A stretch of DNA of 64,000 bases from Verrucomicrobiota bacterium (GCA_017309115.1 JAFLEF010000037.1:4350-68349); one strand, 5' to 3'; positions 1 through 39,063 are shown, numbered from the stretch's first letter. Numbers and translations: made by a program. Notes: generated from the letters alone by a model not told the origin.

Positions 1-311
1 TTGACACGCACCGCCAAAGGCACGGTGTATTCGAGGTTGTTGACGAAATTGTAGGGATCGGCTTGGGCTTGGGCAGAGCTGCTGGTGAACAGGCGGAGCC
101 GAACGCAGTTCAACCCCCGGGCGCGCAGAAGAGTCGGTGCGTCACCAGCTTGACCCGCTTCGCGATAGACGATTCCGCGATCCTCGAAGAAGCGGAGGTG
201 CGAGAGATCAGCACCGGCGAGGAATTCCCCGGCGTTCAACCTCAAACCAGAAAAAGCCGTGACCGTTAACACGGCCACGGCCAACCACCGGATGACGAGC
301 AACCCGTTCAC
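1..311 (-). CDS. Glycoside hydrolase family 53 (arabinogalactan endo-beta-1,4-galactanase), N-terminal part; gene runs off the left edge
   Basis: My own minus-strand translation; it is absent from the ORF track because it is truncated. GTG at 311 gives MNGLLVIRWLAVAVLTVTAFSG (signal peptide), then EFLAGADLSHLRFFEDRGIVYREAGQAGDAPTLLRARGLNCVRLRLF...DPYNFVNNLEYTVPLAVRVK. This resembles the GADxSxL...GxNxVRLRxW N-terminus I recall for GH53. GTGA overlap with the stop of the upstream gene at 308. Confidence 0.55.
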   Translation of the reverse strand, partial: MNGLLVIRWLAVAVLTVTAFSGLRLNAGEFLAGADLSHLRFFEDRGIVYREAGQAGDAPTLLRARGLNCVRLRLFTSSSAQAQADPYNFVNNLEYTVPLAVRV

Positions 312-1603
312 AGGCTAAACAACCGGAACAACGCTGAACTCGCCCCGACTTCAAGCGTGACCGAGCCCTGCCCTTGAGTGTTGGGGACATCCTGCCAAAC
401 CGCACCATTGAGGCTTCCGGCCGTCTGCAACCGGATCTGGGGGCTGGCCGTCCAAGTGATGGTGATCTGCCCGTTCGTGGGCTGGCTGATCGTGATCGGG
501 CCCAATTGATTCACGTTGTTGAAGTATACCAACGGCAGGGTTTGCGGATCGGTGCTGGCCAGCGAGAAGACTCGGTTGTCGGCTCCGTTGGGTCCCACAT
601 TGACTTCCCACGTCGAACCATTGAGGACGAACTTGTAGTAGAGAACCGCGCCCGCAGTGGTGGTGAGGTCGAAGGTGCCAGTCCAGACGTTGGGATTCGA
701 CTCGCTCCGGTTCAGGATCGAGGCGGTGGGGTTCCAATTGTTCAGCAGATCCCCCGCGACCGAGGCCGTTCCCAGTTCCGGGTCGAAGGTGCCCTGCGCG
801 ATGGGAATTGAGAGATCAACTTGGAAGGTGAGCGGGACAATCGACGGAACGACGGGGAGGTTGTTGAAGTACACCGGCGGCAACGTCTGCGGACCGCTGA
901 CCAGGGTCAGTTGACGGTTTTGGGCTCCGTTCGCTCCGACGTTACCCTCCCACGTGCTGCCGTTCATAACGAACTTGAAAGCAACTCCGCTGTTAACGGC
1001 ACCCGAGAGTGTTTGAGTACCTACCCAAAGGTTGGGATCCGATCCGCTGCGGGATAAGGGGGACGCGGTGGGATTCCAGCCATTGAACTCACCCGCCACC
1101 GTGACCGTGTCGGATTCCGGGTTGAAGTTCCCCATCTCCGTTTGAACCGACATGTTGACTTGGAAGGTGACGTCCGAGGTCACGGCCGTGCCGCCGCTGA
1201 CGTTGTTGAAGTAGACCACGGGCAGCGTTTGATCCGTGTCGGAGATTGTCAGGGTACGGTTTCCGGTGCCCCCACCAGTGCCAACGTTCCCCTCCCAGAC
1301 CTGGCCCGTGCCCGTCGCCAGGAGGAACTTGTACTGCCCGGTTTCGCCGGCCGTGCCCGAGACGTCATAAGTGCCGACGAAAATGGAAGGATTACCGGGG
1401 CTGGGAGTGAGCGGCGACTCGGTGGGACTCCAGCCATTGAGAGGATCCCCAGCGACGAAGACGCCGTCGGTGGCTGGATTAAAGGCGCCGAGCGCGGTCT
1501 GCACCGACAGATCCACCTGGAAGGTGACCGGAGCGGCGACGGTGGCGGTGACGACGGTCGCCAGCAAACATCCGGCGGCGATCAAACGGGTTAAGTGATT
1601 CAT
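308..1603 (-). CDS. Secreted protein with four tandem ~100-aa CBM20/E-set-like carbohydrate-binding repeats and a C-terminal FRL-type module
   Basis: ORF 308..1627 (GTG). The ATG at 1603 gives MNHLTRLIAAGCLLATVV, a signal peptide. Four repeats follow the pattern (V/L)TFQV(D/N)(L/M)S(V/I)...G.F(N/D)P..(D/G).(V/A).VAG..NGW(S/N)PT.S.L......NP..(W/F)(V/T)GT...(Y/F)KF......WEGNVG...NR. The protein ends SSALFRLFSL. Confidence 0.6.
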   Translation of the reverse strand: MNHLTRLIAAGCLLATVVTATVAAPVTFQVDLSVQTALGAFNPATDGVFVAGDPLNGWSPTESPLTPSPGNPSIFVGTYDVSGTAGETGQYKFLLATGTGQVWEGNVGTGGGTGNRTLTISDTDQTLPVVYFNNVSGGTAVTSDVTFQVNMSVQTEMGNFNPESDTVTVAGEFNGWNPTASPLSRSGSDPNLWVGTQTLSGAVNSGVAFKFVMNGSTWEGNVGANGAQNRQLTLVSGPQTLPPVYFNNLPVVPSIVPLTFQVDLSIPIAQGTFDPELGTASVAGDLLNNWNPTASILNRSESNPNVWTGTFDLTTTAGAVLYYKFVLNGSTWEVNVGPNGADNRVFSLASTDPQTLPLVYFNNVNQLGPITISQPTNGQITITWTASPQIRLQTAGSLNGAVWQDVPNTQGQGSVTLEVGASSALFRLFSL

Positions 1604-1804
1604 AGAAGGAATTTCTTCTCTGTACACGAGACCCGTCGGAAGTCACTGGTGGGAATTTTGGGAACGTTTTCTTTTGCGTTCTGTCCGGAGTTGTTTCGGT
1701 GCGCTAGCGATTGGCCAGCCGCGAGGACGGTGCAAGTTCGCGGGTCGCTGGCAGGTAAACTTTTGTTCACTTGCTGACGGCGACCTCTTCCGCAGGATTT
1801 CGCG

Positions 1805-2590: not shown

Positions 2591-2609
2591 GGCGACGGAT
2601 GCTTGAGGC

Positions 2610-3881: not shown

Positions 3882-3887
3882 CCGGAT

Positions 3888-6250: not shown

Positions 6251-8416
6251 TCACTGCGGTGACACTCGGAAAAACTCAGGATTCCCACCAATGGCACCTG
6301 GTTCTGGCAAAGGCAAGTCAGTGGTCCCGATCGGAAGATCCTCCGTCGCGACGGGCGCCCAAGTCTTCAGATCCAATGACCGCTCCAAAACGACACGCTG
6401 CGGACGGGTAGCTTGAATGCGCAGCTTCTGCGGTCCCGCCCCCGGATCGGGCAACGCCGTTTGCAAAGGAGGCGACATCTGGGCGTTCAGGGTGATCCAG
6501 AAATCAGAGCTCTGATTGGAATCCACCACGAGATAGTAGGTGGTTCCTGCGGTCGCCAGGAAACGCCGCGGTGAGATGCTTTCGGAGGTCAACCAGTCTG
6601 GAAGGGCATTCGGTGCCGCCACTAAGGATTCCGTCGAATCCCCGTGAAGCACGCGCAGTCGGGGTGGCGTGAAGGTGGTCGTCCAAGGAACCAGCGCGGC
6701 ATGCACCGGCCCCGTCACCGGTGATGTCCAGCGCCACCAGACCTCCGCGCGCTCCGAAGTCAACTCGCCCGTGGCTCCCACCAAGGTCCCGGGCACCGAC
6801 ACAAATAGGCCTTCGATAACAGTCGCCTGGGCAAAGGCGTCATTGGCTGGTGGTCGTGTAAACAGATCCTCTACCGGAAACCGGAGCTGAATCTTGAAGT
6901 CGCCCTCGGTCGGAGCATTGGCCCCAACCTGGATGTAGTAGAGCACCCCCGCCTGCACCCGGAAGGGAACCCGGCTGCTGGTATCCGTCTCGGAACGGTC
7001 GTCGTTCTGACCTCGCACCACGCGGGGGTTGTTGGTGAACACCGAGAGCACGGTGTCCCCCGTCACTTCGGAGGTGCTCACTTCCGCCAGACCATCGGCG
7101 GGAGCGGTCCACTGGTACCAAACGGAGTTGGTGCCGCCAAAAGTTACTTCTCGCGCCGGCTGGTCACCGGTGGCGCCCCGGGTCGTTCCAGCCACCGCCG
7201 GGGCATTCGCCTCTAATACCTGCGCATTGGCAAAGGCGTCATTGGCCGGGGCGGGAGCACTGGGTCCCGGAGTCCACGGAGTCGTCCGGAAATTGAACAT
7301 CAAATTCCCAACATCCCGATTCGTGAGCGCAAACGCGTAGATCTGAAACGTCTGTCCCAACCGGGCCTCAAACTTCAGCCGACTCCAGGGCGTTCTCAAC
7401 GGATCATCCTCGCTACGCACCACCGGCGTTTGGGGTTTTCCAGCGTCTACCCGATTGACCTGCAGGGAGGTGTCGAAGGTGCTGCCAAAAGTATCTACAC
7501 TAACCAACCGGTCGGCCGGAGCCGTCCACAGGAATGAGTAACACGAAGCAATGGAAACCGACGGAAGCCGACCCAACTGAAACTCCGCCAGATCCGACGA
7601 AGCCCGCCGCAAGTCCACCACCAGCCCCTCCACGTCGCCCGTCAACCGGATCGGATTGAGCGGATCGTCACCGGGTGCCGGCCGAAGCTGCGTCAACCGG
7701 ATCGTCTGACGCGTCAACCCGTCGTCGGAATCCCGGGCGGACACCCGCAAATCGCTGGGTGGCCCAAAGAAGTCGTTCACCTGAAAGTCATAGGGAGGTG
7801 CCGTCTTGACCGCCAACGTCCGGTAGCGATTGAGCCCCGCCGGTGACGTCTCCAAAACAACTTCCACAATCGTTCCGTCGGGATCCACCACGGTAACCGG
7901 CAGGAGGAAGTTGACCGGCGCCGTCCAGTTTCCGGCCTGGGGTTCCCCAACGACCATCTCCGGGTACGCATTGAGTCGGATGACCACCTCGGAACTGGCA
8001 TTCGTGGCTCCCAAATTATCCACGGCCACCGCGGTCAGCCGATAGGTTCCGGGAACCACCGGGGCGAATGAGAACGGGAACAAGTCCGGACGGCTCCCCG
8101 GAACCGGCGGCGGGAAGAGCGGCGGCGGAAAGACCGTCGCAAAATTGGTCCCGTTGGCCCAGTACTCCACCCGGGCCACTTTGCCGTCGGCATCGGAAGT
8201 GACCGAAAAGAGCTGTACGCTCCCAAACCGCAGCAGCACCTGATTGGTCACCCCGGACCAAGTCACGGAAGGAGCCTGGTTCTCCACATTAGCCGGCACC
8301 CGAACACGGGTTCGGACCGAGGGTTCGGCGGCTCGAAGGGGATGACTTCCAGCTCCGAACCCAATGAGCCCAACCAAAACCAGAAACACCGCGGACCAAG
8401 AAAATCGAGTTTTCAT
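6251..8416 (-). CDS. Secreted protein with Ig-like domains, three pre-peptidase-C-terminal-like (PPC-like) repeats and a C-terminal FRV module
   Basis: ORF 6251..8497. The likely ATG at 8416 gives MKTRFSWSAVFLVLVGLIGFGAG, a signal peptide. Three PPC-like segments occur; two begin with an NDAFA.A motif (PANDAFANAQVL...SVWYQWTAPADG and PANDAFAQATVI...WWRWTSPVTG) and a third shows only the (W/F)LWTAPADR-type core. The protein ends NPEFFRVSPQ. Confidence 0.7.
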   Translation of the reverse strand: MKTRFSWSAVFLVLVGLIGFGAGSHPLRAAEPSVRTRVRVPANVENQAPSVTWSGVTNQVLLRFGSVQLFSVTSDADGKVARVEYWANGTNFATVFPPPLFPPPVPGSRPDLFPFSFAPVVPGTYRLTAVAVDNLGATNASSEVVIRLNAYPEMVVGEPQAGNWTAPVNFLLPVTVVDPDGTIVEVVLETSPAGLNRYRTLAVKTAPPYDFQVNDFFGPPSDLRVSARDSDDGLTRQTIRLTQLRPAPGDDPLNPIRLTGDVEGLVVDLRRASSDLAEFQLGRLPSVSIASCYSFLWTAPADRLVSVDTFGSTFDTSLQVNRVDAGKPQTPVVRSEDDPLRTPWSRLKFEARLGQTFQIYAFALTNRDVGNLMFNFRTTPWTPGPSAPAPANDAFANAQVLEANAPAVAGTTRGATGDQPAREVTFGGTNSVWYQWTAPADGLAEVSTSEVTGDTVLSVFTNNPRVVRGQNDDRSETDTSSRVPFRVQAGVLYYIQVGANAPTEGDFKIQLRFPVEDLFTRPPANDAFAQATVIEGLFVSVPGTLVGATGELTSERAEVWWRWTSPVTGPVHAALVPWTTTFTPPRLRVLHGDSTESLVAAPNALPDWLTSESISPRRFLATAGTTYYLVVDSNQSSDFWITLNAQMSPPLQTALPDPGAGPQKLRIQATRPQRVVLERSLDLKTWAPVATEDLPIGTTDLPLPEPGAIGGNPEFFRVSPQ

Positions 8417-8965: not shown

Positions 8966-10546
8966 TCACCGCTCCAACCGGACCTCATGGATCGTTTCCG
9001 GCTGCGGGTCAGCCTGTTCGAAGTACTTCCTGAACTCTTTCGCGGCCGGCCCCGAACCCCGTAGCAACCGTTCCACGGACTCCGGCGGAACACTTTGATA
9101 CCACAAGGTCACCACCGCCTCGACCTTTCCAGACGCAGCGCCCAGATCCATTCGATACGTCACCGTATCGCTGCCACTGCCGGCTGCGTTGAAATTTGCG
9201 TCCCGTGCTGCAGCTCCGTGGATGGCGATGTTCGCCTCGTCCGGTCCACCCTTCCGAAACCCGAGGGGCGGCAGACGGTTGTCCTTGAGGTACCGCGTTG
9301 CGCGCAGCAATGAACGGGTCGGTTGTCCCGCCATGTCGCCCATGACCGCCTCGTAGATCTGCACCTGCTCCGGCCGGGTGATCAGATCCAGGTGCTCAGA
9401 ATGTCCGTCCCCTGCTCCGCGAATCCGGCCTCGCTCGTCGGTCGCCCCGGATTCGAACACCGTCTTCCCATTCGCGTCCTGAACGCGGACGTGGAGCCAG
9501 GCCCTCCGATACGGAAAGCCAGTGGGAAACTTGTGTCCGGCGAGGTTCTCTACCAGCACGGTCAGTTCGAGCTGCTGTCCTACGCGCTGACCTTGAACCG
9601 TAAGCGTCGCCGCCTTCTGCAACTGACGCCGGGTGTGGGCGATCGATTGATCGAAGTCCGCCGGACTGGCGTTGGCCTGAAGGGCCTCGGCGTTTTCCTT
9701 CAGCATCGTGAGCAGGAACGCATTTCCACCCACGAACTGGTGTCGCCAAAAAGGCGCCCGCGGCTCCAGCCAAGGAGGTCGCGTGCTCACCTGGGTCGGC
9801 TCATCGATGCGCGGCATGTGGCAGTCCTGACAGTGCTTGCCGCGTTCGGCGTACACGCTGTTGCGCCACTCCAGATAAGGAACCTGTTCGGGGAACTGAC
9901 CTGTGATCTCCCCCTTGGCATCGATAATGGGGGTGAACAGGGTGTGGCAGGTCGCGCACAACGCCGAGTCTTGCGTGTGCGCCCCAAACTTCGGCGTGTA
10001 GTTGACGTGATTCTGCATCGGCCGCGTGAAGACGTCGTCATACGGACCGAATATCTCCCGTGCCCGGCCGATCTCGAAGTTGCCCGTGAAGCTGGCGGCC
10101 TGACCCAGATTCTTTGGTTGGATCTGATGACACACCGTGCAACTGACCCCATCGCCCGCCAGCGGCAGGGTTTTCGCCTGAGCCAGGGAAAGTTCCTTGA
10201 GTCCGTCTTCGCGCGACTGAGTCCGAGCCATGGGCGCGTGACAGGTCAGACACTTGTTCTCGATGTATCCCTTGAGTTCTGGATGTTCTTCGACCTCCAC
10301 TTCGACCACCGCCCGCCACAGCGGATCCTTGAAAGAGTGGGACATCATGGTGGCCCGCCATTCCCCCACGAGGGATACCTTGGACCGCTCGGACGAATCG
10401 GCCGAGGGGTCGTGGCAAAAGGCACAGTTGGCCGAACCGCTGAAGAGCGTCGACGTGGCCTCGGTCAGTTCGGCTGCTGACGCCATCCCCCACCCGAATG
10501 CGATCAACCCGAGAAACCACCGACTTCCCAAGGCCCAGAGTTTCAT
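8966..10546 (-). CDS. Secreted pentaheme c-type cytochrome with a large non-heme C-terminal domain
   Basis: Signal peptide MKLWALGSRWFLGLIAFGWGMASA. Five CXXCH motifs: CAFCH, CLTCH, CTVCH, CATCH, CQDCH. The last ~250 aa carry no heme motif. Confidence 0.85.
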   Translation of the reverse strand: MKLWALGSRWFLGLIAFGWGMASAAELTEATSTLFSGSANCAFCHDPSADSSERSKVSLVGEWRATMMSHSFKDPLWRAVVEVEVEEHPELKGYIENKCLTCHAPMARTQSREDGLKELSLAQAKTLPLAGDGVSCTVCHQIQPKNLGQAASFTGNFEIGRAREIFGPYDDVFTRPMQNHVNYTPKFGAHTQDSALCATCHTLFTPIIDAKGEITGQFPEQVPYLEWRNSVYAERGKHCQDCHMPRIDEPTQVSTRPPWLEPRAPFWRHQFVGGNAFLLTMLKENAEALQANASPADFDQSIAHTRRQLQKAATLTVQGQRVGQQLELTVLVENLAGHKFPTGFPYRRAWLHVRVQDANGKTVFESGATDERGRIRGAGDGHSEHLDLITRPEQVQIYEAVMGDMAGQPTRSLLRATRYLKDNRLPPLGFRKGGPDEANIAIHGAAARDANFNAAGSGSDTVTYRMDLGAASGKVEAVVTLWYQSVPPESVERLLRGSGPAAKEFRKYFEQADPQPETIHEVRLER

Positions 10547-11011: not shown

Positions 11012-11794
11012 CTATCCCCGCCGGCAGCGCAGACGGTGCCCACCCAAGAAGACCCCCATCACTCCCAATCCGAACAACGCCCAAACCGACGGTTCCGGCA
11101 CCGCTGTAACGCCCGCGAACTGGAAGTTTCCGACATCCTTCCCTTGGTCAGCCGGCGTTCCCAGTAGGAAATTCGCCACTTCGAAACTGACCACCATGTC
11201 TCCGGAAATGGTGAGCGTGTTCCCCGCAGTGCCGGTCGTCACATTCACCAAGTCAAACAACGTTCCGGCCGGGGCAATGTTGCCCACCAAATGCCAACCG
11301 CTGCCACCGACCAACAGCCGAGTAGCATCATACGCCAGCGTAAAGTCACCGAAGACCAGTTTCCCTCCGCCCAACAGCGGATTGACCGTCCACCGGGAAA
11401 TCCCGCCGAGTCCAATGACTCCCGTGTGGCTAGTAAGGTTGTCCGGCGAAAACTGGAAGGTCGTGGGCTTCGCCGTCCGACCTGCCAAGTTGGAGACCTG
11501 CGCGCCGTTTAGCGCATAGGTCAATCCTGTGTAGGAAGGCGAAGCTTGGACCTCGTCCGCGAGAATCTGCGCGCCGGTTCGCGATGCGGCCCCCGCCTGG
11601 TCGAAGGTCTCGTCGAGGGTAAGCGCTTCGAAGCCCGGCACACTCGCCCCGCCGGCGAGGCTATCCCAAGCCGCCTGATGAAAATCTATCGTGGCCTGAC
11701 CGGTCACCAAAACGTCCGCCCGGGCAGACGTAACGGCGATGGCGACCCACCAAGCGGTGGCCGCGACGGTTCGAAAACGGGGCAAAGACTTCAT
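11012..11794 (-). CDS. PEP-CTERM-anchored secreted protein (paralog A)
   Basis: Signal peptide MKSLPRFRTVAATAWWVAIAVTSARA. The C-terminus VPEPSVWALFGLGVMGVFLGGHRLRCRRG shows PEP motif + TM + basic tail. The body is paralogous to 11946..12845. Confidence 0.8.
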   Translation of the reverse strand: MKSLPRFRTVAATAWWVAIAVTSARADVLVTGQATIDFHQAAWDSLAGGASVPGFEALTLDETFDQAGAASRTGAQILADEVQASPSYTGLTYALNGAQVSNLAGRTAKPTTFQFSPDNLTSHTGVIGLGGISRWTVNPLLGGGKLVFGDFTLAYDATRLLVGGSGWHLVGNIAPAGTLFDLVNVTTGTAGNTLTISGDMVVSFEVANFLLGTPADQGKDVGNFQFAGVTAVPEPSVWALFGLGVMGVFLGGHRLRCRRG

Positions 11795-11945
11795 ACCAAT
11801 TAGGGCAGATCCGCGAGGACGGGCTCGTGTCGGAAGACTCAGTCTTTACGGATGAGGGTTTCTTCCATCAAGGACTCAGATCGATTCCCGGTGTGGCATT
11901 TTGCCGCAACGTGAATTCGGGCGGGGATCGGCATGTTCCCGAACC

Positions 11946-13600: not shown

Positions 13601-13620
13601 ATACCCGCTCATTCTCCCCC

Positions 13621-24971: not shown

Positions 24972-27900
24972 ATGCGCTCTGTCTTGACCTGTTTGCTGGC
25001 TCTAGGAGCCGGATACCCTCTCCATTCCGCGACGCAATTCCTCCATGGAATTGCCTCCGGCGATCCCGCTCCGGATTCGGTCGTCCTGTGGACGCGAGCG
25101 ACGCCCGACGCCGCCGGTCCAGTGACGCTAACCTGGCAGATCTCCACGACTCCTGAATTCACCACCACCCTGCAATCGGGAACCTTTCAGACTGATGCGA
25201 ACCGGGATTACACGGTCAAGGTCATCCCCACCGGACTCCAGGCCGGGACAACATATTATTACCGCTTCCTCGCAGACAACGGAGCGGCCGCCTCGGAAAC
25301 GGGCCGCACCAAGACGCTTCCGACGGGTGAGGTCGGCCAGGTGCGGCTCGCGGTGTTCAGTTGCGCCAATATCACCGCCGATCCGTTTGATGCGTATGCG
25401 AAGGCAGCCCGAATCGGGGACTACGATGCCCTCGTTCACACCGGCGACTACATTTACGAATACGGCTTGGGTGGCTATCCGGAGGCGGAAGGACTGGCCG
25501 AAGCCGTCGGCTTCGAACCCGACCGCGAGTGTATCACCCTCGAGGACTATCGCCTGCGCTACGCCCAATATCATCGGGCGCCGAAACTCCAGGCCGCCCG
25601 CGCTTCCGCGCCATTCATTGTGATCTGGGACGATCACGAAACCGCCAATGACGCCTACGCCGGCGGAGCGCAGAACCATTCGCCCGCCATCGAAGGTTCC
25701 TGGACCAACCGGGTGAGCGCAGCACTCCAAGCCTACTACGAATGGCAGCCTATTCGGGAACCCGCGAGCGGCGACCGACGGCAGGCTTACCGCTCTTTTG
25801 ACTTCGGCAATCTGGTTTCGCTGCACATGCTCGAAACGCGGTTGAACGCCCGGGATCTTCAGCTCGATCTCGCCCCGACCCAGACCCAGGCCGTCACACG
25901 CATCGGAGCCATTCTCGCCGATCCCACCCTGGTGGCGCAGTACGCCACCACCTACGGACTGTCGCCGCCCACAGGCCCCGGCGACACGGCTGGTATCACC
26001 GCGTTCAGCACCGCACTCGGTCCAATCGTGACGGCGGAGTTTGTCACCCAGAATGTGACCCAGATGTACACTGGTGATCGCAAGCTGCTGGGTGCGGAGC
26101 AACTCCAGTGGCTGCAGGGGCAACTGGCTGGATCCGGCGCCACCTGGCAGGTCCTGGGGCAACAAGTGCTCATGGGCAACATGACCATGCCCGCTGAACT
26201 CCTGATCGAACTGGCCAGCGGATCGGTCTCCCCGGCTACCATCGTCAAGTATCTCACGCCCGTGACGAAGCGCGCCAACGGGCTCCCTCTAACCCCGGCT
26301 GAGCAGGCCGTCCTCGCGAACGCGAATCCCCTGCCCTACAACTCCGACGCGTGGGATGGGTACGGTCGGGAACGCGAAACCGTCCTCCAGACCGCTGCCA
26401 GCCTGGGCAAGAAGCTGGTGGTCTTCGCGGGCGATACCCACAACGCCTGGTCCAGCACCCTGCGAACCTTCAGTGCCGGACCGGGAGTTCCCGCCGGTAC
26501 GGTGGCTGGCATCGAGTTCGCCGCCCCGGGCGTGTCCTCTCCGGGCATCGAACGTTACTTCCCGGGTCAGCAAGGAATTCTCCGCGACTTGTTTCTTGGC
26601 TACAGCCCGAATCTGAAGTTCGCCAACCTGGCCAACCGCGGCTTTCTGGATGTGACCTTCAAGCCTGACGGCGTGACCGCGAAGTTCTACCTGCGGGAAC
26701 GTTCTGCTGACCGCCGCCAGTGGCTGGTTGAAACCCTTTCTGGTCCTACGCCTTCGTCGATTTCCCAGAGCGCACCCACCTCCGAGAACGACAACTATCG
26801 GCTTCAGATCCTTCACGCCTCGGACATGGAAGCCGACGTTGTCACGCTCGAGACCGCACCTCGCTTTGCCGCCCTGGTAGATCGACTCGAAGACAATTCC
26901 GCCGTCGACGCCTCCATCACCCTGGCTGCCGGAGACATCGTCATTCCGGGCGCGTTCCTCTCCGCTGGCAATGATCCCTCCACCGTCGCCCCGCTGAAGA
27001 CCGTGCTCGGACTGGTGTTTAACTTTGACGCTTCCGGCGCCGCCACGGATCTGCGCGAAAGCGCCGGACGTCCCGACATCGCGATCCTGAACGCCATCGG
27101 CTTCGACGCCGCTTCAATCGGCAATCACGAGTTCGACCTCGGGCCGACCGAATTCGCCTCCATGATTCTCCCGGATGTCCGGTCCGGTGGATTGCCCCGC
27201 TTGCGCAACTACGGCGCCGCCTTCCCGCTCCTGAGCGCGAACCTCGACTTCAGCGGTGTTCCAACGGGCGAATCCGCGCTGGCTGCCCGCTCCACGCAAC
27301 AGATTCTTCCGGCCAGTCGCTTTGGAGCCAATCCCTCCACCGACGCCAGCTACGTCAGCACGGCGGCGGCGGACATCGCCCAGCATCCCAAACTCGCCAC
27401 CGCCACGATCATCGAACGTGGCACTGAGAAGATCGGAGTCCTCGGCGTGACGCCGCCAGACCTCGCCAACATTTCTTCACCCGGGTCCGTGCGGGTGACC
27501 GGTCCGCAGGGATCCACTGCCACCAGTCCGCGTACTTACGACATCGCCGCCCTGGCCGCCCATCTGCAACCCGTGATCGACGCGCTGCGCACCAACGGCT
27601 GCACCAAGATCGTGCTGTCGTCGCAACTGCAGCAGATCGACAATGAGAAGGCGCTCGCCCAAAGCTTGGACGGCGTGGATGTCATCGTCGCCGGCGGATC
27701 CGGAACCATCTACGTCAATGATCCCGCCAATCTTCTCCCCGGCGACACCGCCGCTGGCCGTTATCCATTCCTCACCACCGACAAGCTGGGCCGGACCGTG
27801 GCCGTGGTCAGCACCGAAGGCCAATATCAGTACCTCGGTCAACTGGTCGTAGACTTCGACAACGAAGGAAACGTACTGGGAGTTTCTGGCGATACGCTAC

Positions 27901-29342
27901 CAACGACCGCCGCCAAAGTGACTTCCCTTTGGGGAGCCTCCGATCCCTTTGCTCCGGGAACCCGCGGCGCAGCTGTCAAAGTTATTACGGACGCCATCGG
28001 TTCGGTCATCAATTCCAAGGACGGCCTGATCCTCGGCCGCGCTTCGGTGTATCTCGAAGGTCGCCGAACCACCGTGCGCCAGCAGGAATCCAACTTCGGC
28101 AATCTCTCCGCCGACGCCAATCTCTGGTACGCCCAGCAGTATGATCCCGCCGTCCAAGTCTCACTCAAGAACGGCGGTGGCATTCGGAATTCCATTGGCT
28201 CCACTGGACCCGCCGGCGAACTCCTGCCCACCCGCGCCAATCCCTCGGCCGGCAAGATCGGCGGGGACATCAGCCGGCTGGACATTGAGGATTCCCTCAA
28301 GTTCAACAACGCCCTGACCGTTCTCAGTGTAAATGCCGGCCAGCTCAAGCTGCTCCTGGAACACGGGGTCGCGGCCAGCACTGGAACCGGAGCCGACCGC
28401 GCCACGCCTGGTCAGTTCTGTCAGTTGGGAGGCATCGTCGTGGTCGCCGATCTGACCCAACCCGCCCAGCGCTACACCAGCGCCGCCAACGTGATCTCCG
28501 CAGTCACGGAAGGTCAGCGCATCCGCTTCGCAGCCTTGCTCGATGAGAATGGGCAACCGGGCGACGTGTTGGTTGCTGACGGCGAAGTTCTGAATCCCGG
28601 ACGCACGATTCGGTTGGTGACCCTCAACTTCCTCGCCAATCCCGGCGCCGCAGGCTCGGACTTCGGCGGTGACAGCTATCCATTCCCGTACATCAACCGT
28701 CTCAACGGCAATCTGGCTTACGATCGTCGCGACTTGAACTCGGCCACGCTGACTCCTCCCCTGCCGGCAACCTTCCCGGCCCTTGCTTCGTTCGCCCTGC
28801 CCGGCACCGAGCAGGACGCCTTTGCCGAGTATCTTCAGGCTTTCCACAAAACCACCCCGTTTGCCCAGGCCGACACCTCCGGCGATCGCGACCGCCGCCT
28901 GGTTCAGGGAACGGCGGACACGGATGGCGACGGATTCTCCAACGCCGAGGAAACGTCGCTGTTCTCCCTGGGGATGAGCCCGGATCGGAGCGCCACGGCG
29001 TCCCAGACCAACGCTCTCCTTCGTCTCCGGCGTCAGGGACAGTCTGACGTCGTCGGAACTCCGTCCGCCTTCAACCTGTTTACTTCCCTCCAGGTGGATG
29101 AAGCGCGATTGGCAGGTCGAACCGACGTGGTTTCGGATCCCGCGCCCTACGGACTCTACACGGCACCCCGAGCGGACATTCGTTTGGATGGCCTGATCCT
29201 GCCCTTTACCAACAACGCGGTGGTCACCTTCAAGCTCCAATCCTCGGATGACTTCACCACGTGGACCGATGCCGCCGTCGTCCCCAACGTCTCGGTGGAT
29301 CTGACCACTCCGGCGAAGTACTTCCGCTTCCGAGCGGAGTAA
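24972..29342 (+). CDS. Secreted fusion protein: PhoD-like phosphatase + UshA-type 5'-nucleotidase/metallophosphoesterase + acidic Ca-binding-like repeat + C-terminal FRF module
   Basis: The ATG at 24972 gives MRSVLTCLLALGAGYPLHS, a signal peptide. The PhoD N-terminus is FLHGIASGDPAPDSVVLWTRA, with VIWDDHETAND. The second half has ILHASDMEAD, GNHEFDLG and the 5'-nucleotidase C-domain motif (ESNFGNLSADA). It also carries DTDGDGFSNAEE. The protein ends AKYFRFRAE. Confidence 0.85.
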   Translation: MRSVLTCLLALGAGYPLHSATQFLHGIASGDPAPDSVVLWTRATPDAAGPVTLTWQISTTPEFTTTLQSGTFQTDANRDYTVKVIPTGLQAGTTYYYRFLADNGAAASETGRTKTLPTGEVGQVRLAVFSCANITADPFDAYAKAARIGDYDALVHTGDYIYEYGLGGYPEAEGLAEAVGFEPDRECITLEDYRLRYAQYHRAPKLQAARASAPFIVIWDDHETANDAYAGGAQNHSPAIEGSWTNRVSAALQAYYEWQPIREPASGDRRQAYRSFDFGNLVSLHMLETRLNARDLQLDLAPTQTQAVTRIGAILADPTLVAQYATTYGLSPPTGPGDTAGITAFSTALGPIVTAEFVTQNVTQMYTGDRKLLGAEQLQWLQGQLAGSGATWQVLGQQVLMGNMTMPAELLIELASGSVSPATIVKYLTPVTKRANGLPLTPAEQAVLANANPLPYNSDAWDGYGRERETVLQTAASLGKKLVVFAGDTHNAWSSTLRTFSAGPGVPAGTVAGIEFAAPGVSSPGIERYFPGQQGILRDLFLGYSPNLKFANLANRGFLDVTFKPDGVTAKFYLRERSADRRQWLVETLSGPTPSSISQSAPTSENDNYRLQILHASDMEADVVTLETAPRFAALVDRLEDNSAVDASITLAAGDIVIPGAFLSAGNDPSTVAPLKTVLGLVFNFDASGAATDLRESAGRPDIAILNAIGFDAASIGNHEFDLGPTEFASMILPDVRSGGLPRLRNYGAAFPLLSANLDFSGVPTGESALAARSTQQILPASRFGANPSTDASYVSTAAADIAQHPKLATATIIERGTEKIGVLGVTPPDLANISSPGSVRVTGPQGSTATSPRTYDIAALAAHLQPVIDALRTNGCTKIVLSSQLQQIDNEKALAQSLDGVDVIVAGGSGTIYVNDPANLLPGDTAAGRYPFLTTDKLGRTVAVVSTEGQYQYLGQLVVDFDNEGNVLGVSGDTLPTTAAKVTSLWGASDPFAPGTRGAAVKVITDAIGSVINSKDGLILGRASVYLEGRRTTVRQQESNFGNLSADANLWYAQQYDPAVQVSLKNGGGIRNSIGSTGPAGELLPTRANPSAGKIGGDISRLDIEDSLKFNNALTVLSVNAGQLKLLLEHGVAASTGTGADRATPGQFCQLGGIVVVADLTQPAQRYTSAANVISAVTEGQRIRFAALLDENGQPGDVLVADGEVLNPGRTIRLVTLNFLANPGAAGSDFGGDSYPFPYINRLNGNLAYDRRDLNSATLTPPLPATFPALASFALPGTEQDAFAEYLQAFHKTTPFAQADTSGDRDRRLVQGTADTDGDGFSNAEETSLFSLGMSPDRSATASQTNALLRLRRQGQSDVVGTPSAFNLFTSLQVDEARLAGRTDVVSDPAPYGLYTAPRADIRLDGLILPFTNNAVVTFKLQSSDDFTTWTDAAVVPNVSVDLTTPAKYFRFRAE

Positions 29343-30248: not shown

Positions 30249-30258
30249 ATACCGGAAG

Positions 30259-32865: not shown

Positions 32866-34512
32866 TTAAGGGACAGCACCGGATTCGGCCTGCGGACGGC
32901 CCTCCCGATAAAGCTCGCTCATTTCCTCGGGATTGAGCGCCCGGCTGAACAGGTAGAACTCATCCATTGCCCCGCTGAAATTGCGAATCAGAAAGGGATC
33001 CTTCCCGGGAAATCCGCTCGCGTTCCAGTTGCCCAACTCCGCCACGCCAATCTGGAACGGAGGGTCGATTCGCAGGGCCTTGGTCCCCACCGGCCGGCCG
33101 TTGACGTAATGCGTCACAGTCCCGCCTTCGCCATCCAACACCACCGCCAAATGCAGCCAGCTTCCCAACTGATCCAAGGTCAGCACCGGCGAACTGGCCA
33201 CAATCTGGAACTCACCTTCGCCCGGACCAATCACCGTGAACCCGAGCACACCGTCGTCGCGAATCGACCAGTGCACGGTTCCGGGCGCGAATCCGTCCGA
33301 CATGAACAAGGAATTGATCTGTCGATCCAGTCCTTGCACCCGCACCCACGCCGCCAGGGTCAGGGACTCAAACTCACCGGGCAGATTCATCCGCACGCGA
33401 TCCCCAACGCGTTGAAACTCCAGCGCCGGTTTCGCCGGCCATCGTCCTTCGACCCACTGACCGCCGACGATGGTGGCGTCGGGCATCTCAGCACCTCCCT
33501 GCCCCACATTCTGCAGCTGCCAATCCGACCGCGCCGAATGCTCGAAGTCAAAGTGCACCCGCAGCGAGGGATCGGCCTGACGCCGGCGGGCAGTCAACCG
33601 CCATTGATCGTACCGCTTGGCTTCGGCGACGGCGGACTTTGCCTGCAACGCGAACAACGAACCAAATGCCGCCGCGTCGGCAACCGTCCGTTGCGGCCGC
33701 CCCGCTCGTTCGACCGCGACTCCGGCGCCCTGGGGCAGGACCTGCGGGACGGCGCTCGACATCGACTGAACCTGCACGCTTCCCTGGAACACGTGGAGTT
33801 CCGCCCCGGTCGCCTGCACGGCCAAGCCGAAAGACGTGCCCAGGTCGGTCACGGCCAGGTCGGGCGTTCGCACGCGGAAGCCGCGGGCTTCGGGAGGAAC
33901 TTCCGCCACCAAACGACCAACCGGACAAAAGGCCTCTCCCGGCGAAATGATCTGAAGTTCAGCCGGTCCTTCCAACACCACCCGGGCCCCGCTGTAAAAC
34001 ACCACCTGCACCAGCCCGCTCCGGACGCGAATCCAACCCGGTTCCAGGGGAGCACCCAGTTTAGGAATGGGACCGCCAGCCTCCCACTGCGCGTCGACGA
34101 CGCGGTTCAAGAGGGCTACGGCCTTGCTGGTGGCGCCTCGCTTGCCCCCATTCAAATCCGGACGCAGGACCCAGAATCCCACGGCCAGGAACACCAGGGC
34201 CGCCGCCATCGCCAAGGTCCAGACCGACCCCAACCGTTTCCCTCGCCTGCCCCGAATCGATCCACGCCGAACCTCCGACGGAGGTGCCTCCCCTGCGAAC
34301 GCGCCGGTCAATTCCCGCGGGCCGCTCAAGTGCAGTTCCGATTCCGACGCGAGCCACGAATGCAGTTCCACCCGCAGGAGGTATTCGTCCCGCGCCGCCG
34401 CCTCAGTCCGCAACAGCCCATGAAGCGCCTGGAGTTGATCCTCGGACGCCGTGCCGTGACACACCGCCGCCACGGCGTCATCGAAGTCCCGGGAGGGGAA
34501 CGTCAGCTTCAT
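32866..34512 (-). CDS. Anti-sigma factor (FecR-like) with a C-terminal LamG/concanavalin-like domain
   Basis: The ATG at 34512 (MKLTFPSRDFDDAVAAVCHGTASEDQLQALHGLL) forms an ATGA overlap with the sigma gene stop. A single TM helix, LAMAAALVFLAVGFWVL, is followed by a FecR-like region and then a LamG tail (LTLAAWVRVQG...MDEFYLFSRALNPEEMSELY). Confidence 0.8.
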   Translation of the reverse strand: MKLTFPSRDFDDAVAAVCHGTASEDQLQALHGLLRTEAAARDEYLLRVELHSWLASESELHLSGPRELTGAFAGEAPPSEVRRGSIRGRRGKRLGSVWTLAMAAALVFLAVGFWVLRPDLNGGKRGATSKAVALLNRVVDAQWEAGGPIPKLGAPLEPGWIRVRSGLVQVVFYSGARVVLEGPAELQIISPGEAFCPVGRLVAEVPPEARGFRVRTPDLAVTDLGTSFGLAVQATGAELHVFQGSVQVQSMSSAVPQVLPQGAGVAVERAGRPQRTVADAAAFGSLFALQAKSAVAEAKRYDQWRLTARRRQADPSLRVHFDFEHSARSDWQLQNVGQGGAEMPDATIVGGQWVEGRWPAKPALEFQRVGDRVRMNLPGEFESLTLAAWVRVQGLDRQINSLFMSDGFAPGTVHWSIRDDGVLGFTVIGPGEGEFQIVASSPVLTLDQLGSWLHLAVVLDGEGGTVTHYVNGRPVGTKALRIDPPFQIGVAELGNWNASGFPGKDPFLIRNFSGAMDEFYLFSRALNPEEMSELYREGRPQAESGAVP

Positions 34513-35066
34513 GACACCGCCCCTCCCGCCTTCGCGGCGTTCTCGATACAAGCCTGAAGCGCTTGTCGGACCCGTTGCAGGGTTTTGTAGGTGGCGCCCA
34601 CGGTTCGACCCGAATGTTCGGCCAGTGTCTCGATACCGTCCCGGCGGTAGTAGTAGCCTTCCACCAAATCGCGTTGCTCCCGCGGCAACTGGGTCAGACA
34701 CCCTTCCAGGTGCTTCAAGCGAAGTTCCAAGTCCGGCCGCAGCTCCTCGCGCCGGCGGGCCAGTTCCTCCGCCAAACCTCCCTGCAGCAGCGCCTGCCAC
34801 CGCTGGCGGCGTTCGATCCACTGACGGGTCTTGTTAAGCGCGAATCGACAAGCCCAGGGGGTGAACGGTTGCTGCGGATCGTAAGCGTCAAACTTCTCCC
34901 AGAGCGTCAACGCCGTTTGCTGAACAATATCCTCGGCGTCCGCCACGTTGGGAACGAGCGCGGCCACGTACCGGAAAATCTCCCGTTCGCTGCGCAGGAA
35001 CAGCGACAGGAACCGCTGTTGGGCGGCATTCTGATCCCCAAAAGGGCGCGTTGGTTCGGAAGACAT
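34509..35066 (-). CDS. ECF-type RNA polymerase sigma factor
   Basis: The ATG at 35066 gives MSSEPTRPFGDQNAAQQRFLSLFLRSEREIFRYVAALVPNVADAEDIVQQTALTLWEKFDAYDP (region 2). Region 4 follows: REQRDLVEGYYYRRDGIETLAEHSGRTVGATYKTLQRVRQAL. Confidence 0.85.
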   Translation of the reverse strand: MSSEPTRPFGDQNAAQQRFLSLFLRSEREIFRYVAALVPNVADAEDIVQQTALTLWEKFDAYDPQQPFTPWACRFALNKTRQWIERRQRWQALLQGGLAEELARRREELRPDLELRLKHLEGCLTQLPREQRDLVEGYYYRRDGIETLAEHSGRTVGATYKTLQRVRQALQACIENAAKAGGAVS

Positions 35067-35303
35067 TCTAGAGGTTCTCGTCGTACTTCCGTTAAACCCA
35101 CCGTTTTGGACAAAGAATGGCCACCGAATTCCTCCCAGCCTTCCCGGCGGACAGTGGGGCGCCGCTCCTACCCTTCGACTCCGCCGCAAGTAGCCGACGA
35201 GGGGACGAGGCGCTGACTCACGAGGCAAACCTCCACGCCCGGGTCCAGCCACGACGGGCAGGGAGAAGAATGGCGCCTCCTGCCGTCGGCGACTACCGCA
35301 GCT

Positions 35304-35331: not shown

Positions 35332-35358
35332 CCCGTTCCGACCTCTCAGCTTGAATGC

Positions 35359-35388: not shown

Positions 35389-35421
35389 GTGCACCGTTAT
35401 CCAAACTACCTCATCAAATTC

Positions 35422-38400
35422 CTACGGTACCGCCCGGTAGAACGTCGTTCCGACCGCCGTTGTGGTGAAGGGACTCGTCGCGCCCACCACCGAAGTGAAT
35501 GGTCCGGCCAACGAAGGCGCTGATTGCAGCGTTCCGGTGTAGATGATTGTGATCGAATCGCCGGTCGCGGAGATGGCCACCGTCGGAGTCGTTGTTGCCG
35601 TCACTACGTTGACCACTTCGGAAGTTACAAACCGACCCGGAACACCCACTACCACTCGGTAGTCCGACTCAAAGTCCGCCGGTTGGATCGCGAAGAAGCT
35701 CAGGTCCGAGCCAATCTCATTGGGCAGGTCCACAAAACCCGACCCGGAGTCCCGTTGCCACTGGTAGGTGAACGTGGTCGGAGTGCCTTGACGGGTGACC
35801 ACGGCTTCAGAATCGAAGGTGACCCGCGTCGGCGGATCGATTGTGGAGAGGGTGAAACTCTTGATGGCCCAACTGGGCAAACTGGCTCGGGAGCAGTCAT
35901 CCCAGGCCCCCAGGAACTGCACCGCGACCCGATCGCCCGCAGCGAACACCCCCAGGACCGCTGTCGTGGTGATGAACTCACCCGCCGCGTACCCCGCCGA
36001 GTCTCCGTTAAAGGCATACTGCCCATTGATCACCCCGCCCCCCTGAATGGTCCGACCAGTGGCGTAGCCGTTGGAGACAAAGTTCTCCTTCGGAACCAGC
36101 ACAAACGGTCCGCCGTTCGTACTCACCAGGATTTGTCCGCCGTCCCAGTAGTCGCTTTCGAACGAATACCGATGGGTCAGGCTGATCATGACCGCCTGGG
36201 ACGCTGGCACCACAAACTCCGGACTGATCAGCCGCGAATTGTAAGGACCATCGCACCCTTCCGAGGAACCATCCGCCGTCCAGGTCCCCGACCCGCTATC
36301 GTAAAGGAACGGTCCCGGTGGCTCAGGGGTGGTGTTGGTCACAGTGAACCCACCCCCGGAGGTGGCAAAACTCACATTGGTGAAGGCCACCGGCACGGAA
36401 AGCGGGGCCGCCAACTCATCCGTCGGCTGAAGCGAGAAAGCGATCTCGGCGTTGGGATCCACATAGGAGGCGAAGAATTCACCCGGAATCGGAGGCAACG
36501 CGGTCGCGGCCGTCGAGTCCGTGGACTTGCGCCACGCCACCCGCAGATAATCCCCGCCGCCACCCTCCTTGAGCAGGGCCAGAATCGCATACTTGCGGCC
36601 CGCCACCAAACTGATGGGAGTGGCGGTCGTGGCAGCGTCCCCGGCATCCGGTTCGGCGTAGCCCGCACAGCAGTCCAACTCGAAGATGATCGGTGCATCT
36701 ACCGCCGGATTGGGCGGAGTTTCATTCGAACTCAGGTACACCCGCGAAGCATCGTCCGAGGAAACGAAGAAGTAGTAGTCTCCCGATTCCGTCGGCGTGA
36801 TGAAGCCGGACATCTGGGCGAAGTAGTTTTCGTGACTGTCGTCGGCGAAGAATGTCCGGGTGTCGAATCGGCCGACCAAGTTCCCCAAGGTCGTCGGCTT
36901 TCCTGCCACCACGCGCGAATCGCTCAGTGCGGCCGTAATCGCCGCATCGTTGGCGGCGGGCAGATTGTCGTAGTGCTCGAAGCGGAGAATGCCCTGGGCC
37001 AGAACCCAGGAGCCAAAGCTGATCGAAGCTCCCGCGGCAATGGTCGAGGCCGGAAGCATCTGATCCTTAATGCCCGTCACCGTCACGGTGTAGGTCTGAC
37101 CCGGGGTCTGAGGCGAAGTCGTCAACACCACGATGTTGTCGCCCTCGAGTCCCGGACTGGCGGCAAGAGCGGCGGCAGTGACGGTGAGACCGGGGATTTG
37201 ATAGCTCGACGGATTCTGGGCCGTGACTGGATCCAGCGGCTTCGAGAACCAGATTCGAGCCTGGGTGAAACTGGGGAGTCCAGCGGCGTATTGAATCACC
37301 GGGGCGATTCCATCCGCCGGGAGAACCGAGACGCTGACCGGTGCGCTCGTCGCTGATCCATAGGGATTCGACACCACGACGTCGTACAATCCGGCCAGAG
37401 CCTCGGTCATCGAGGGAATCTCCAGAGACGCATTCGTCTGGGTGTTCAGATCAACCCCGGCCCGCCGCCATTGGAAGCTCACCGGATCGGAACCGCGGGC
37501 CGCCACCGACAGCGCCAGAGTATAACCGGCGTACAACGGTCGGCTCGGAAGCGCTGGCTGGCGGGTGATCACGGGCGCCACTTCGGACGTGAAGTAGAGT
37601 TGTTGCACCTGCTCGGCCGTCAGGGCGGTCGGGAAAACCGCAACTTCATCAATGTCTCCGAGAAAGAAGTCTCCTGCCGTGTTGAAGATCCCACCGCCGC
37701 CAATGTTGAAGGTGTAGGCGCTGGAACCATACGACTCGACCGGACCGGTCATGCGTCCGATCTCGAGACCATTCGCGTAGAGAACGGTGTTGGTCGGGCT
37801 CGCGACCACGGTAAACAGCCCCCATTCGTCGTCCCGGAAGGGATAATTCGCAATGATGTTGCCAGCACGGGCGTTCACGTAGAGCTCTACGCTGGCACCG
37901 CTGTTGGCATCGCCGAATTCCAGCAGATCATTCTGGCCAAAATAGCCGCCCCGACCGCTGTGGATCGCCCCGCGCCGGACCCATCCCGACAGAGTGAACT
38001 CCGTCAGATCATTCAAAGTAAACTGGGTTCCGACGTAGCCTGCGGCGCCATTGAAGCGACCCGCGAGGTTCGACGGGTCGAATCCGGAAAAGGCCGGCGG
38101 ACGCGGTCCTTCGACGGCCACGGTCATTCCCGGATTGAAGGAACCGTCTGCTGCCGCGCCGATGCTTCCCTGATTCTTAGCCACGGGCAGCGAGGAGGGC
38201 GGCGTGTAGGCGGACTCACCCAGGCGGTAGTACGCAAGGGGAGCCGACGCCAGTACCAGCGAGTTGTACGGAGTGGTCGGAGTAGCACTCGTGCCATTCG
38301 CAAAGTGCGCGGAAATCTGAGCCGCGCTCAGTGCGGTCGGGTACAAGGCCACTTCATCCGCCGAACCATTCCAGTAGAACGAAGCATCGGCGCGTCCGGC

Positions 38401-39063
38401 AATGGCCAGGCCACCTGAAGCGCCCGGGACATAGCCCGTGGGAGTTCCTTCGGCCGCCATCTGGCCATTCACATACAGTTTGGCCACGGTTCCGTCGTAG
38501 ACCGCCACCACATGATACCAGAGTCCTGGCGTCGGCGCTCCCCCGCCCGTGATGCTCAACGATGTGGCCGTGCCTTTGTTGTCGTACATCCGCAGGTTCC
38601 ACCCGGTCTCGGACTGATAGATCAGCCATCCCGTGCGCGGAGAGGCAAATTGCCCCGCCGAAAGAGCGCAGGTCAGCGTGCCCGATCCCGCGTCGAATGA
38701 GGTGCCAGGATTGAGCCAAGCTTCCACCGTAAACGGTGCGGCGGGATGCAAAGCCGGCAGATAGGGAACCAGCGCATAACTCCCCGCAGTGCCGTCAAAA
38801 TACGCCGCCGAATCGGTACTGCCGGCGAGGGCACCGGTGACCGGATGGCTGGCAAGGCCCAAATAGAACGCGTTGGCAGGGGAGCCCACCGAGCCCAGAT
38901 TGGACGCCACATCCGCCGGAGGTAGAGGCGTCGATTCATCGAGCTGCCAATACGCCAGGGGATTAAGGCCGGTTACCGTCGAGACGAAATCCGCCTTCGA
39001 CGTGGAGAGGGCGCTACTGACGAGCGCCACCATGCTGACAAGTTTCAGGAGTCGACTTTTCAT
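35422..39063 (-). CDS. Giant secreted LamG-repeat / Ig-like / PA14-like protein (1213 aa) with a C-terminal FYRA module
   Basis: The ATG at 39063 gives MKSRLLKLVSMVALVSSALSTSKA, a signal peptide. Repeated LamG_3-type blocks occur (LAYWQLDES..., DEVALYPTALSAAQI, DEVAVFPTALTAEQV). There is an I-set Ig-like block (PVITRQP...FQWRRAG...YDVVVSNPYGSATS) and a PA14-like block (FEHYDN...GFITPTESGDYYFFVSSDDASRVYLS). Confidence 0.8.
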   Translation of the reverse strand: MKSRLLKLVSMVALVSSALSTSKADFVSTVTGLNPLAYWQLDESTPLPPADVASNLGSVGSPANAFYLGLASHPVTGALAGSTDSAAYFDGTAGSYALVPYLPALHPAAPFTVEAWLNPGTSFDAGSGTLTCALSAGQFASPRTGWLIYQSETGWNLRMYDNKGTATSLSITGGGAPTPGLWYHVVAVYDGTVAKLYVNGQMAAEGTPTGYVPGASGGLAIAGRADASFYWNGSADEVALYPTALSAAQISAHFANGTSATPTTPYNSLVLASAPLAYYRLGESAYTPPSSLPVAKNQGSIGAAADGSFNPGMTVAVEGPRPPAFSGFDPSNLAGRFNGAAGYVGTQFTLNDLTEFTLSGWVRRGAIHSGRGGYFGQNDLLEFGDANSGASVELYVNARAGNIIANYPFRDDEWGLFTVVASPTNTVLYANGLEIGRMTGPVESYGSSAYTFNIGGGGIFNTAGDFFLGDIDEVAVFPTALTAEQVQQLYFTSEVAPVITRQPALPSRPLYAGYTLALSVAARGSDPVSFQWRRAGVDLNTQTNASLEIPSMTEALAGLYDVVVSNPYGSATSAPVSVSVLPADGIAPVIQYAAGLPSFTQARIWFSKPLDPVTAQNPSSYQIPGLTVTAAALAASPGLEGDNIVVLTTSPQTPGQTYTVTVTGIKDQMLPASTIAAGASISFGSWVLAQGILRFEHYDNLPAANDAAITAALSDSRVVAGKPTTLGNLVGRFDTRTFFADDSHENYFAQMSGFITPTESGDYYFFVSSDDASRVYLSSNETPPNPAVDAPIIFELDCCAGYAEPDAGDAATTATPISLVAGRKYAILALLKEGGGGDYLRVAWRKSTDSTAATALPPIPGEFFASYVDPNAEIAFSLQPTDELAAPLSVPVAFTNVSFATSGGGFTVTNTTPEPPGPFLYDSGSGTWTADGSSEGCDGPYNSRLISPEFVVPASQAVMISLTHRYSFESDYWDGGQILVSTNGGPFVLVPKENFVSNGYATGRTIQGGGVINGQYAFNGDSAGYAAGEFITTTAVLGVFAAGDRVAVQFLGAWDDCSRASLPSWAIKSFTLSTIDPPTRVTFDSEAVVTRQGTPTTFTYQWQRDSGSGFVDLPNEIGSDLSFFAIQPADFESDYRVVVGVPGRFVTSEVVNVVTATTTPTVAISATGDSITIIYTGTLQSAPSLAGPFTSVVGATSPFTTTAVGTTFYRAVP

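Follow-up and report, generated by a model that had tools for sequence, protein, structure and literature searches.

A small C-terminal all-beta module on unrelated secreted proteins of Verrucomicrobiota, interchangeable with PEP-CTERM in one protein family

Introduction

The stretch of DNA considered here, 64,000 nt from a Verrucomicrobiota bacterium (hereafter the window; G+C about 61 %), encodes six secreted proteins, labelled A to F, whose bodies are mutually unrelated and whose chains all close on a similar tail of about 60–75 amino acids (aa). Sequence comparison supports five of these tails as members of one family, and the sixth, that of B, is probably a divergent member. The module is a predicted six-stranded domain with a strong bias towards the chain end of secreted proteins, found on very diverse cargo and mainly in Verrucomicrobiota, and in the family of protein C it occupies the site at which other members carry PEP-CTERM. 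We infer that it may be a terminal tethering or docking domain acting non-covalently at the cell surface, a reading to which we assign a probability of roughly 0.4.

Verrucomicrobiota are major polysaccharide degraders in soil, freshwater and the sea, and how their very numerous glycoside hydrolases, lectins and adhesins are brought to the outer membrane or beyond it, and kept there, is poorly understood. A terminal domain found across the phylum gives a sequence handle for predicting the surface and secreted proteome of these largely uncultured organisms and a bait for finding its partner or machinery, and the presence of module or PEP-CTERM within single protein families sets up a natural comparison. 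Even if the module were merely structural, a family model would put a label on a segment that now has no annotation in more than 10,000 protein clusters. Neither the fold class nor the concept of a terminal localisation domain is new; the family itself has no Pfam or NCBIfam model, no description of the domain was found in the searchable literature, and in a preprint on C-terminal sorting signals Verrucomicrobiota come up solely with regard to PEP-CTERM (Haft, 2023).

The six tails of the window

A first-pass annotation of the sequence had described six secreted proteins with different bodies and a common tail closing on an aromatic-aromatic-Arg-hydrophobic motif. Translation places all six open reading frames (ORFs) at the coordinates in Table 1, with C-termini exactly as quoted there, and Pfam and NCBIfam scans agree that the bodies are mutually unrelated. 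A Sec-type signal peptide is plausible on each of the six once a sensible start codon is picked for its ORF; the start chosen for F falls at coordinate 39063, the end of the range given in the annotation. With Val16 as start, C has exactly the sequence of an NCBI hypothetical protein from a Verrucomicrobia metagenome-assembled genome (MAG).

Among the 269 six-frame ORFs that reach 100 aa, five close on the strict form [FYW][FYW]R[LVFAIM] followed by 2–3 residues, versus 0.11 expected from the density of the motif. The sixth tail, that of A, ends in LFRL-FSL and lies outside the strict aromatic-aromatic-Arg motif. These counts, together with the matches of an outside profile to the tails, lead us to reject a chance motif. 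The module is absent from the housekeeping and cytoplasmic-type proteins of the window (urease genes, a UreG/CobW-type GTPase, isochorismatases and a sigma54 activator), and likewise from its CHASE kinase, GT4 glycosyltransferase, halogenase-like flavoprotein and inositol monophosphatase.

Homology among the tails was assessed from inside and outside the window. Leave-one-out hidden Markov models (HMMs) built from the window tails alone recovered only A (1e-4) and D (2e-5); C was the top non-member match at 0.16, and B, E and F were missed. The outside profile, built from 270 domain copies of the top database matches with none from the window, matched D at 3e-21, A at 8e-9, C at 1.4e-3 and E at 4e-3. 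The tail of C is further linked to family members by phmmer at 1e-5, and that of E is placed in the family by hhalign with 95.8 % probability (E 7e-9). The tail of F belongs to a short subtype, '...LQSS..L.GP(F/W)..V.GATSP(F/Y)T...F(Y/F)R', and is linked by phmmer to database protein P0160 (6e-10), to the C-terminal tail of a protein in genome locus L039 (8e-9) and also to P0041 and P0161. The sequence HMMs of both kinds failed to recover B, the weakest case, for which hhalign gives 56 % probability (E 1e-4) over the C to F strands and an AF2 model guided by an alignment shows these same six strands with pLDDT 76. The proposal of a module shared by all six proteins is thus supported for D, A, C, E and F and probable for B.

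Family size, consensus and fold

Word-indexed protein searches with short profiles gave only 4 and 7 matches, hence an exhaustive HMMER search was made across 1.84 billion cluster representatives (50 %-identity clusters). At E<=1e-3 a seven-sequence profile (A2) matched 10,229 proteins, 370 of them at E<=1e-10, and the names in the source databases are uninformative ('hypothetical protein' or 'SBBP repeat-containing protein'). The family consensus reads 'P.L.I...G..VVLSWP....GF.LE.S..L....W..V...P...G....VT.P......F(Y/F)RL', with the chain stopping 2–3 residues past F[YF]RL, and it contains the pattern that the annotation had picked out upstream of the terminus.

The beta-strand-rich character attributed to the tail agrees with the AF2 models, since that of D (38-sequence alignment, pLDDT 93) has six beta strands, as does that of B. 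Foldseek searches of PDB and BFVD returned weak generic matches only (FN3, Ig, CBM48, CBM21, CBM56), the best being FN3 domains of cytokine receptors (E 0.04, TM 0.64), and Foldseek on the two models together with a profile search of PDB sequences yielded no specific relative. No model of Pfam-A or NCBIfam (release 20) covers the module in the six proteins, in the isolated tails (E<=10) or in ten canonical array proteins, in keeping with the statement that the tail corresponds to no named sorting signal. Phage receptor-binding proteins as sharers of the module were considered and found unsupported: a scan of IMG/VR viruses with the family consensus gave no match, and the Foldseek matches in BFVD were generic and Ig-like only.

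A closer view of the fold comes from P0014 (3,561 aa), whose FN3-type repeats, called PF01108 Tissue_fac by Pfam, are cross-matched by the family profile from the 'ILLSWP' strand to the 'YYYRV' strand. The repeats extend past the latter strand, and the module ends at the equivalent point. Because of this alignment and the six-strand model, the module is probably a distant FN3 derivative that comprises FN3 strands A to F and ends after strand F. A generic Ig/FN3-type identity, which the annotation had named as counting against its idea, therefore applies in part: the domain appears to be of distant FN3 type, yet its terminal motif is conserved.

Taxonomic range, position and copy number

One genome per GTDB species was scanned with the family HMM consensus as query, which skews the taxonomic picture towards the canonical subtype; of 39 confirmed genome loci, 37 are, going by record title, from Verrucomicrobiota (subdivision 3, Limisphaerales, Verrucomicrobiales and Akkermansiaceae MAGs). 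These loci hold 50 module ORFs, each single-copy, and 49 of them end in a stop codon. HMM scans locate the module at most 6 residues from the stop in 47 of these 49, and at most 5 residues from the end in 135 of the 149 best database matches, so the C-terminal placement first noticed in the window extends to the family. Two or more tandem copies, up to eight, occur in 118 of the 149 best matches, whose ranking by summed score favours arrays. Modules can also stand at the other terminus, directly after the signal peptide, as in P0044 (2462 aa, FG-GAP/Big_5; residues 28-239) and P0122 (2223 aa, RHS/teneurin-like; residues 16-245).

Two further architectures were observed among the database matches. 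P0026 (1613 aa), probably from outside Verrucomicrobiota, has a divergent module ('...FFFDLRQP') four times internally with poly-Gly linkers between the copies, and a hydrophobic C-terminus rich in Trp and Leu. A class of small proteins (P0005, P0007, P0010, P0012, P0015 and P0156, the last at L042:6001-6432) consists of a signal peptide, a domain of about 65 aa and one to six modules; the N-terminal domain of this class, 'DWFTIDGGGG..Y.v.GTIGQPDAG..Y.v.GGFW', has no Pfam or NCBIfam match.

The chain end

Terminal copies are constrained in where they stop and in what they stop with. The chain ends exactly 2 or 3 residues past F[YF]RL in 152 of 184 terminal copies (83 %). Arg or Lys stands at position +1 in 85 of these 184 versus 15 of 151 internal copies; Lys or Arg is also common at +2 of the terminal copies, and Pro occupies +3 in 64. 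All six window tails keep the 2–3-residue rule, and four have Pro at or beside the end. In 118 of 138 cases a terminal copy finds its best match in the terminal copy of another protein, where the background rate is 44 %, and within proteins the internal copies are 60.6 % identical to each other versus 49.4 % to the last copy. Terminal copies thus appear from their sequences to form a subtype of their own, and the terminus seems special to a degree.

These data bear on an alternative in which the module is a plain structural FN3-like domain, a spacer or a stability or solubility cap, and owes its C-terminal bias to domain shuffling at 3' ends. The generic fold class, the distant similarity to FN3-type repeats and conserved positions compatible with a purely structural core all agree with such a domain, as do tandem arrays like those of Ig/FN3 stalk domains and the occasional internal or N-terminal copies. 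Generic FN3 or Big domains, however, do not sit at the terminus in 94–96 % of cases on 58 Pfam body families as the module does, and both the stop after 2–3 residues and the terminal-specific composition argue for selection on the terminus. We therefore regard a purely structural role as rather unlikely, and the exchange described next, at an orthologous position, reduces its appeal further.

Interchange with PEP-CTERM

Protein C has a divergently transcribed paralogue in the window that carries PEP-CTERM. The two bodies are 46 % identical (E 7e-62) and their similarity stops at '...F(E/Q)F(T/A)(A/G)', beyond which the paralogue continues into PEP-CTERM and C into the module. Among 108 database homologues of C, some 63–75 end in the module, typically as ...FFRLQQP, 28–29 end in PEP-CTERM (VPEP, transmembrane helix, Arg cluster) and one, a Nitrospira relative, ends in VPLPA-CTERM; none of the 108 carries module and PEP-CTERM together.

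The same swap is seen at the level of gene order. A conserved Verrucomicrobia cassette consists of a secreted 'VGNFTFTA' body protein of about 230 aa with either tail, a prepilin-type DUF1559 protein ending in HLLGNYY(F/Y), and a DJ-1/PfpI protein. The module is the tail of the first gene product in the window and in loci L046 and L047; in L048 and L049 the gene at this position encodes PEP-CTERM (Table 1). Sequence comparison therefore indicates that the module can replace PEP-CTERM within the protein C family and at the cassette position. Comparisons of this kind are how C-terminal anchors are recognised; the swap shows the module in an anchor's place, not that the module is an anchor.

Several observations adjoin this exchange. 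Trypsin_2 genes lie near the cassette in L046 to L049, and SCO1/SenC-family genes in L046 to L048. At L012:4393-7149 a module protein is followed immediately, on the same strand, by a PEP-CTERM protein, and therefore both kinds of tail coexist side by side in another genome too. Protein P0006 combines eight modules with NCBIfam 'choice-of-anchor' GloVer repeats. The CHRD-domain protein of the window (Table 1) ends in '...AVPEAGAAPLVLLSLAGLVVRARRR', a tail that looks PEP-CTERM-like by eye and is uncalled by Pfam and NCBIfam.

Interchange with another C-terminal sorting signal would also be expected of a C-terminal export signal like the T9SS (type IX secretion system) C-terminal domain (CTD), read by a dedicated outer-membrane translocon and probably cleaved, with possible covalent re-attachment of the cargo. 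The module resembles such a signal in being a small beta-sandwich that sits at the very C-terminus of many unrelated Sec-dependent exoproteins of one phylum, and in its tightly constrained chain end. We nevertheless consider this improbable: the tails show no T9SS CTD sequence match and none stands among the listed structural matches, and 2–8 near-identical tandem copies, internal copies before further domains and N-terminal copies all sit badly with an export signal. No candidate machinery, be it a processing enzyme or a translocon, was identified in a search that fell short of whole carrier proteomes, and the genes around the array-only P0156 (M23 peptidase, S15 peptidase and a two-component system) point to none.

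Cargo

In the genome loci, 58 Pfam families were found across 40 module proteins, all of extracellular type, among them LamG, Ig, SBBP, CBM6, CBM35, GH3, GH5, GH16, GH53, lectins and F5/8-type C. Of 58 module proteins with a body and a Met start, 36 have a clear signal peptide, and most of the others look like truncated gene calls.

The richness in sugar-active cargo raises the alternative that the module is a small carbohydrate-binding module steering enzymes to their substrate polysaccharide and not to the cell. In favour of this are its terminal site, its varying number of copies, its conserved aromatic residues and its presence on many glycoside hydrolases, lectins and CBM-containing proteins; Foldseek gave weak matches to CBM48, CBM21 and CBM56, and a weak local profile match reached discoidin/CBM32-type glucanase domains (E 0.04). 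Every one of these similarity scores is non-significant, however, with a best PDB profile match of E 0.036 over 50 residues of a 137-aa discoidin domain, Foldseek CBM matches at E 0.3–0.8 and F5_F8_type_C against the tail of E at E 0.083. The carriers of the module also include phosphatase/nucleotidase, RHS-type, SBBP, FG-GAP and cassette proteins without a glycan link, and the exchange with PEP-CTERM points to the cell, not the substrate. Substrate targeting thus appears an improbable explanation.

Features of the window

The coordinates of the module proteins, their modules and the neighbouring features are collected in Table 1. The ECF sigma factor and FecR-like anti-sigma pair lies directly downstream of the LamG-rich protein F, and the multihaem cytochrome gene stands amid exoprotein genes. 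The two tandem Sde182 genes adjoin an AraC-type regulator and protein D, a layout that recurs on two Logan contigs (L001, L002). The GTPase with the His-rich run is about 12 kb from the urease genes.

Table 1. Module proteins, modules and other features, with window coordinates unless a locus is named
Feature	Position	Strand	Description
Protein A	308..1603	-	Signal peptide (Met9), CBM48-containing body, C-terminal module
Module of A	311..511	-	67 aa, end ...ALFRLFSL; outside-profile envelope reaches last residue
Protein B	6251..8416	-	Signal peptide (Met28), body with weak PPC match, C-terminal module
Module of B	6254..6478	-	About 75 aa, end ...EFFRVSPQ; divergent, probable member
Multihaem c-type cytochrome	8966..10546	-	Secreted; weak MtrC/OmcA-like matches
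PEP-CTERM paralogue of C	11012..11794	-	PF07589 and TIGR02595 matches
Protein C	11946..12845	+	299 aa, signal peptide (Val16), body of about 230 aa without Pfam family, C-terminal module
Module of C	12609..12842	+	End ...RWFRLQQP
Prepilin-type N_methyl/DUF1559 protein	12842..13600	+	Start overlaps stop of C; cassette member
Cassette, window	11012..14484
Cassette, L046	7061..10727
Cassette, L047	212..3878
Cassette, L048	8001..10432
Cassette, L049	8001..10432
CHRD-domain protein	16997..17710	-	Signal peptide
Sde182 nucleoside-hydrolase-like genes with adjoining AraC-type regulator	17894..20502; 20577..21437	-; +	Two Sde182 genes in tandem, one with Sde0182 C-terminal domain
Protein D	21511..24378	-	Signal peptide (Met1), 880-aa body without Pfam match, C-terminal module
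Module of D	21514..21729	-	72 aa, end ...AYFRLTQP; canonical form
Protein E	24972..29342	+	Signal peptide (Met100), PhoD phosphatase, 5'-nucleotidase, TSP3, C-terminal module
Module of E	29160..29339	+	60 aa, end ...KYFRFRAE
ECF sigma factor gene, then FecR-like anti-sigma protein	32866..35252	-	FecR-like protein with C-terminal LamG
Protein F	35422..39063	-	Signal peptide (Met83), LamG x2, Ig, PA14, C-terminal module
Module of F	35425..35595	-	57 aa, short 'GATSPFT' subtype, end ...TFYRAVP
CobW/HypB/UreG-type GTPase	42585..43406	-	Long N-terminal His-rich run
Urease genes (UreC, UreD)	55108..58507	-	With urea/branched-chain-type ABC permease

Proposed function

In the proposed mechanism, the module would keep or dock the attached enzyme, lectin or adhesin on the surface of the producer after Sec export, presumably uncleaved, by binding an envelope component or a partner protein. 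Its role would parallel the anchoring of paralogous proteins by PEP-CTERM/exosortase. In multi-copy proteins a stalk might be formed by the internal copies, with attachment left to the last one, whose distinct end is short and often basic. Promiscuous cargo, restriction to one lineage, a near-constant terminal site, secretion and the swap with PEP-CTERM can together be read as traits of lineage-specific localisation modules, and the variation in copy number with rare internal and N-terminal copies seems to fit a folded binding or docking domain better than an obligate C-terminal signal.

Several points weigh against surface tethering. The Trp of SWP, the second Trp and F[YF]RL may all be structural, and no binding surface is picked out by the conserved positions. 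Tethering alone leaves the stop 2–3 residues past the last strand unexplained, and the six window tails lack the basic end of the canonical terminal copies. The contrast between terminal and internal copies can partly reflect orthology of array proteins and divergence of edge repeats. The apparent mutual exclusion with PEP-CTERM adds little: none of 217 module proteins has a PEP-CTERM-type end, but with only 2 PEP-CTERM ORFs among the 735 of the sampled loci the comparison has low power, and the absence of double carriers is weak evidence. A separate matter is the first-pass interpretation, a candidate sorting or attachment tag fixed at the extreme C-terminus. Of the 50 genome-locus ORFs, 3 have an internal module, followed in L016 by a further domain of about 390 aa and in L019 and L014 by additional sequence, at odds with a strict C-terminal tag. 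The part that concerns the extreme C-terminus of unrelated signal-peptide proteins stands; the strictness gives way before tandem arrays of 2–8 copies and internal and N-terminal copies.

The module might also be the cargo tag of an undescribed localisation pathway of Verrucomicrobiota: a folded C-terminal domain whose exposed last strand and short end would be read by a dedicated partner in the outer membrane or on the surface. It would work in parallel with PEP-CTERM/exosortase and be analogous to the T9SS CTD of Bacteroidota. We put this forward tentatively, as a possibility on the doubtful side. If true, the pathway would mark on the order of at least 100 exoproteins per genome for export or attachment, a figure roughly extrapolated from 6 carriers in 64 kb and 11 extra ones in about 390 kb of loci.

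Comparison with known systems

The T9SS CTD of Bacteroidota (Por_Secre_tail, TIGR04183/PF18962) is the closest parallel in general design. Like the module, it is a beta-sandwich, of about 70–100 aa, at the extreme C-terminus of unrelated exoproteins with signal peptides, confined to a single lineage, and its sequence differs strongly from one cargo protein to the next. The T9SS CTD has seven strands, whereas the module model has six, and the module differs further in its Verrucomicrobiota host, its tandem arrays and some internal or N-terminal copies; neither PorU/PorV/Sov-type machinery nor cleavage is known for it. None of the six tails or ten multi-copy proteins matched the T9SS CTD models (TIGR04183/PF18962, TIGR04131) at E<=1 to 10, and no T9SS CTD appeared among the listed Foldseek matches. 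The T9SS CTD has been described as a beta-sandwich (PMC4804311). Membership was rejected on the lack of a Pfam or NCBIfam match.

The PEP-CTERM/exosortase signal (TIGR02595, PF07589) shares with the module the C-terminus of secreted proteins, the same genomes and interchangeability. It is, however, a motif of about 25 aa with a transmembrane helix and a basic cluster, and the module is predicted to be a folded, soluble all-beta domain without a hydrophobic helix. Assignment of the tails to PEP-CTERM was rejected on this ground, and the neighbouring paralogue of C does have the motif, the helix and the basic cluster. LPXTG and short signals such as GlyGly-CTERM and MYXO-CTERM were likewise rejected, as the tails have no NCBIfam sorting-domain match and no transmembrane segment.

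With FN3 (PF00041 and relatives like PF01108) the module has in common the beta-sandwich class, the 'SW(P)' B strand and the Tyr/Phe-x-hydrophobic F strand; it differs in that the seventh (G) strand is apparently missing and in its nearly always terminal position. Pfam fn3 gave no match to the window tails and at best E 0.49 in the canonical arrays, and membership of the fn3 and Big families was rejected for want of a covering Pfam or NCBIfam match.

SLH, GW and WxL modules, choline-binding repeats and dockerins are promiscuous terminal modules with variable numbers of tandem copies, sometimes at the other terminus. Unlike the hosts of that set, the carrier of the present module is a diderm of the PVC group, and there is no relationship in sequence or fold; in promiscuity, copy number and placement the module resembles them.

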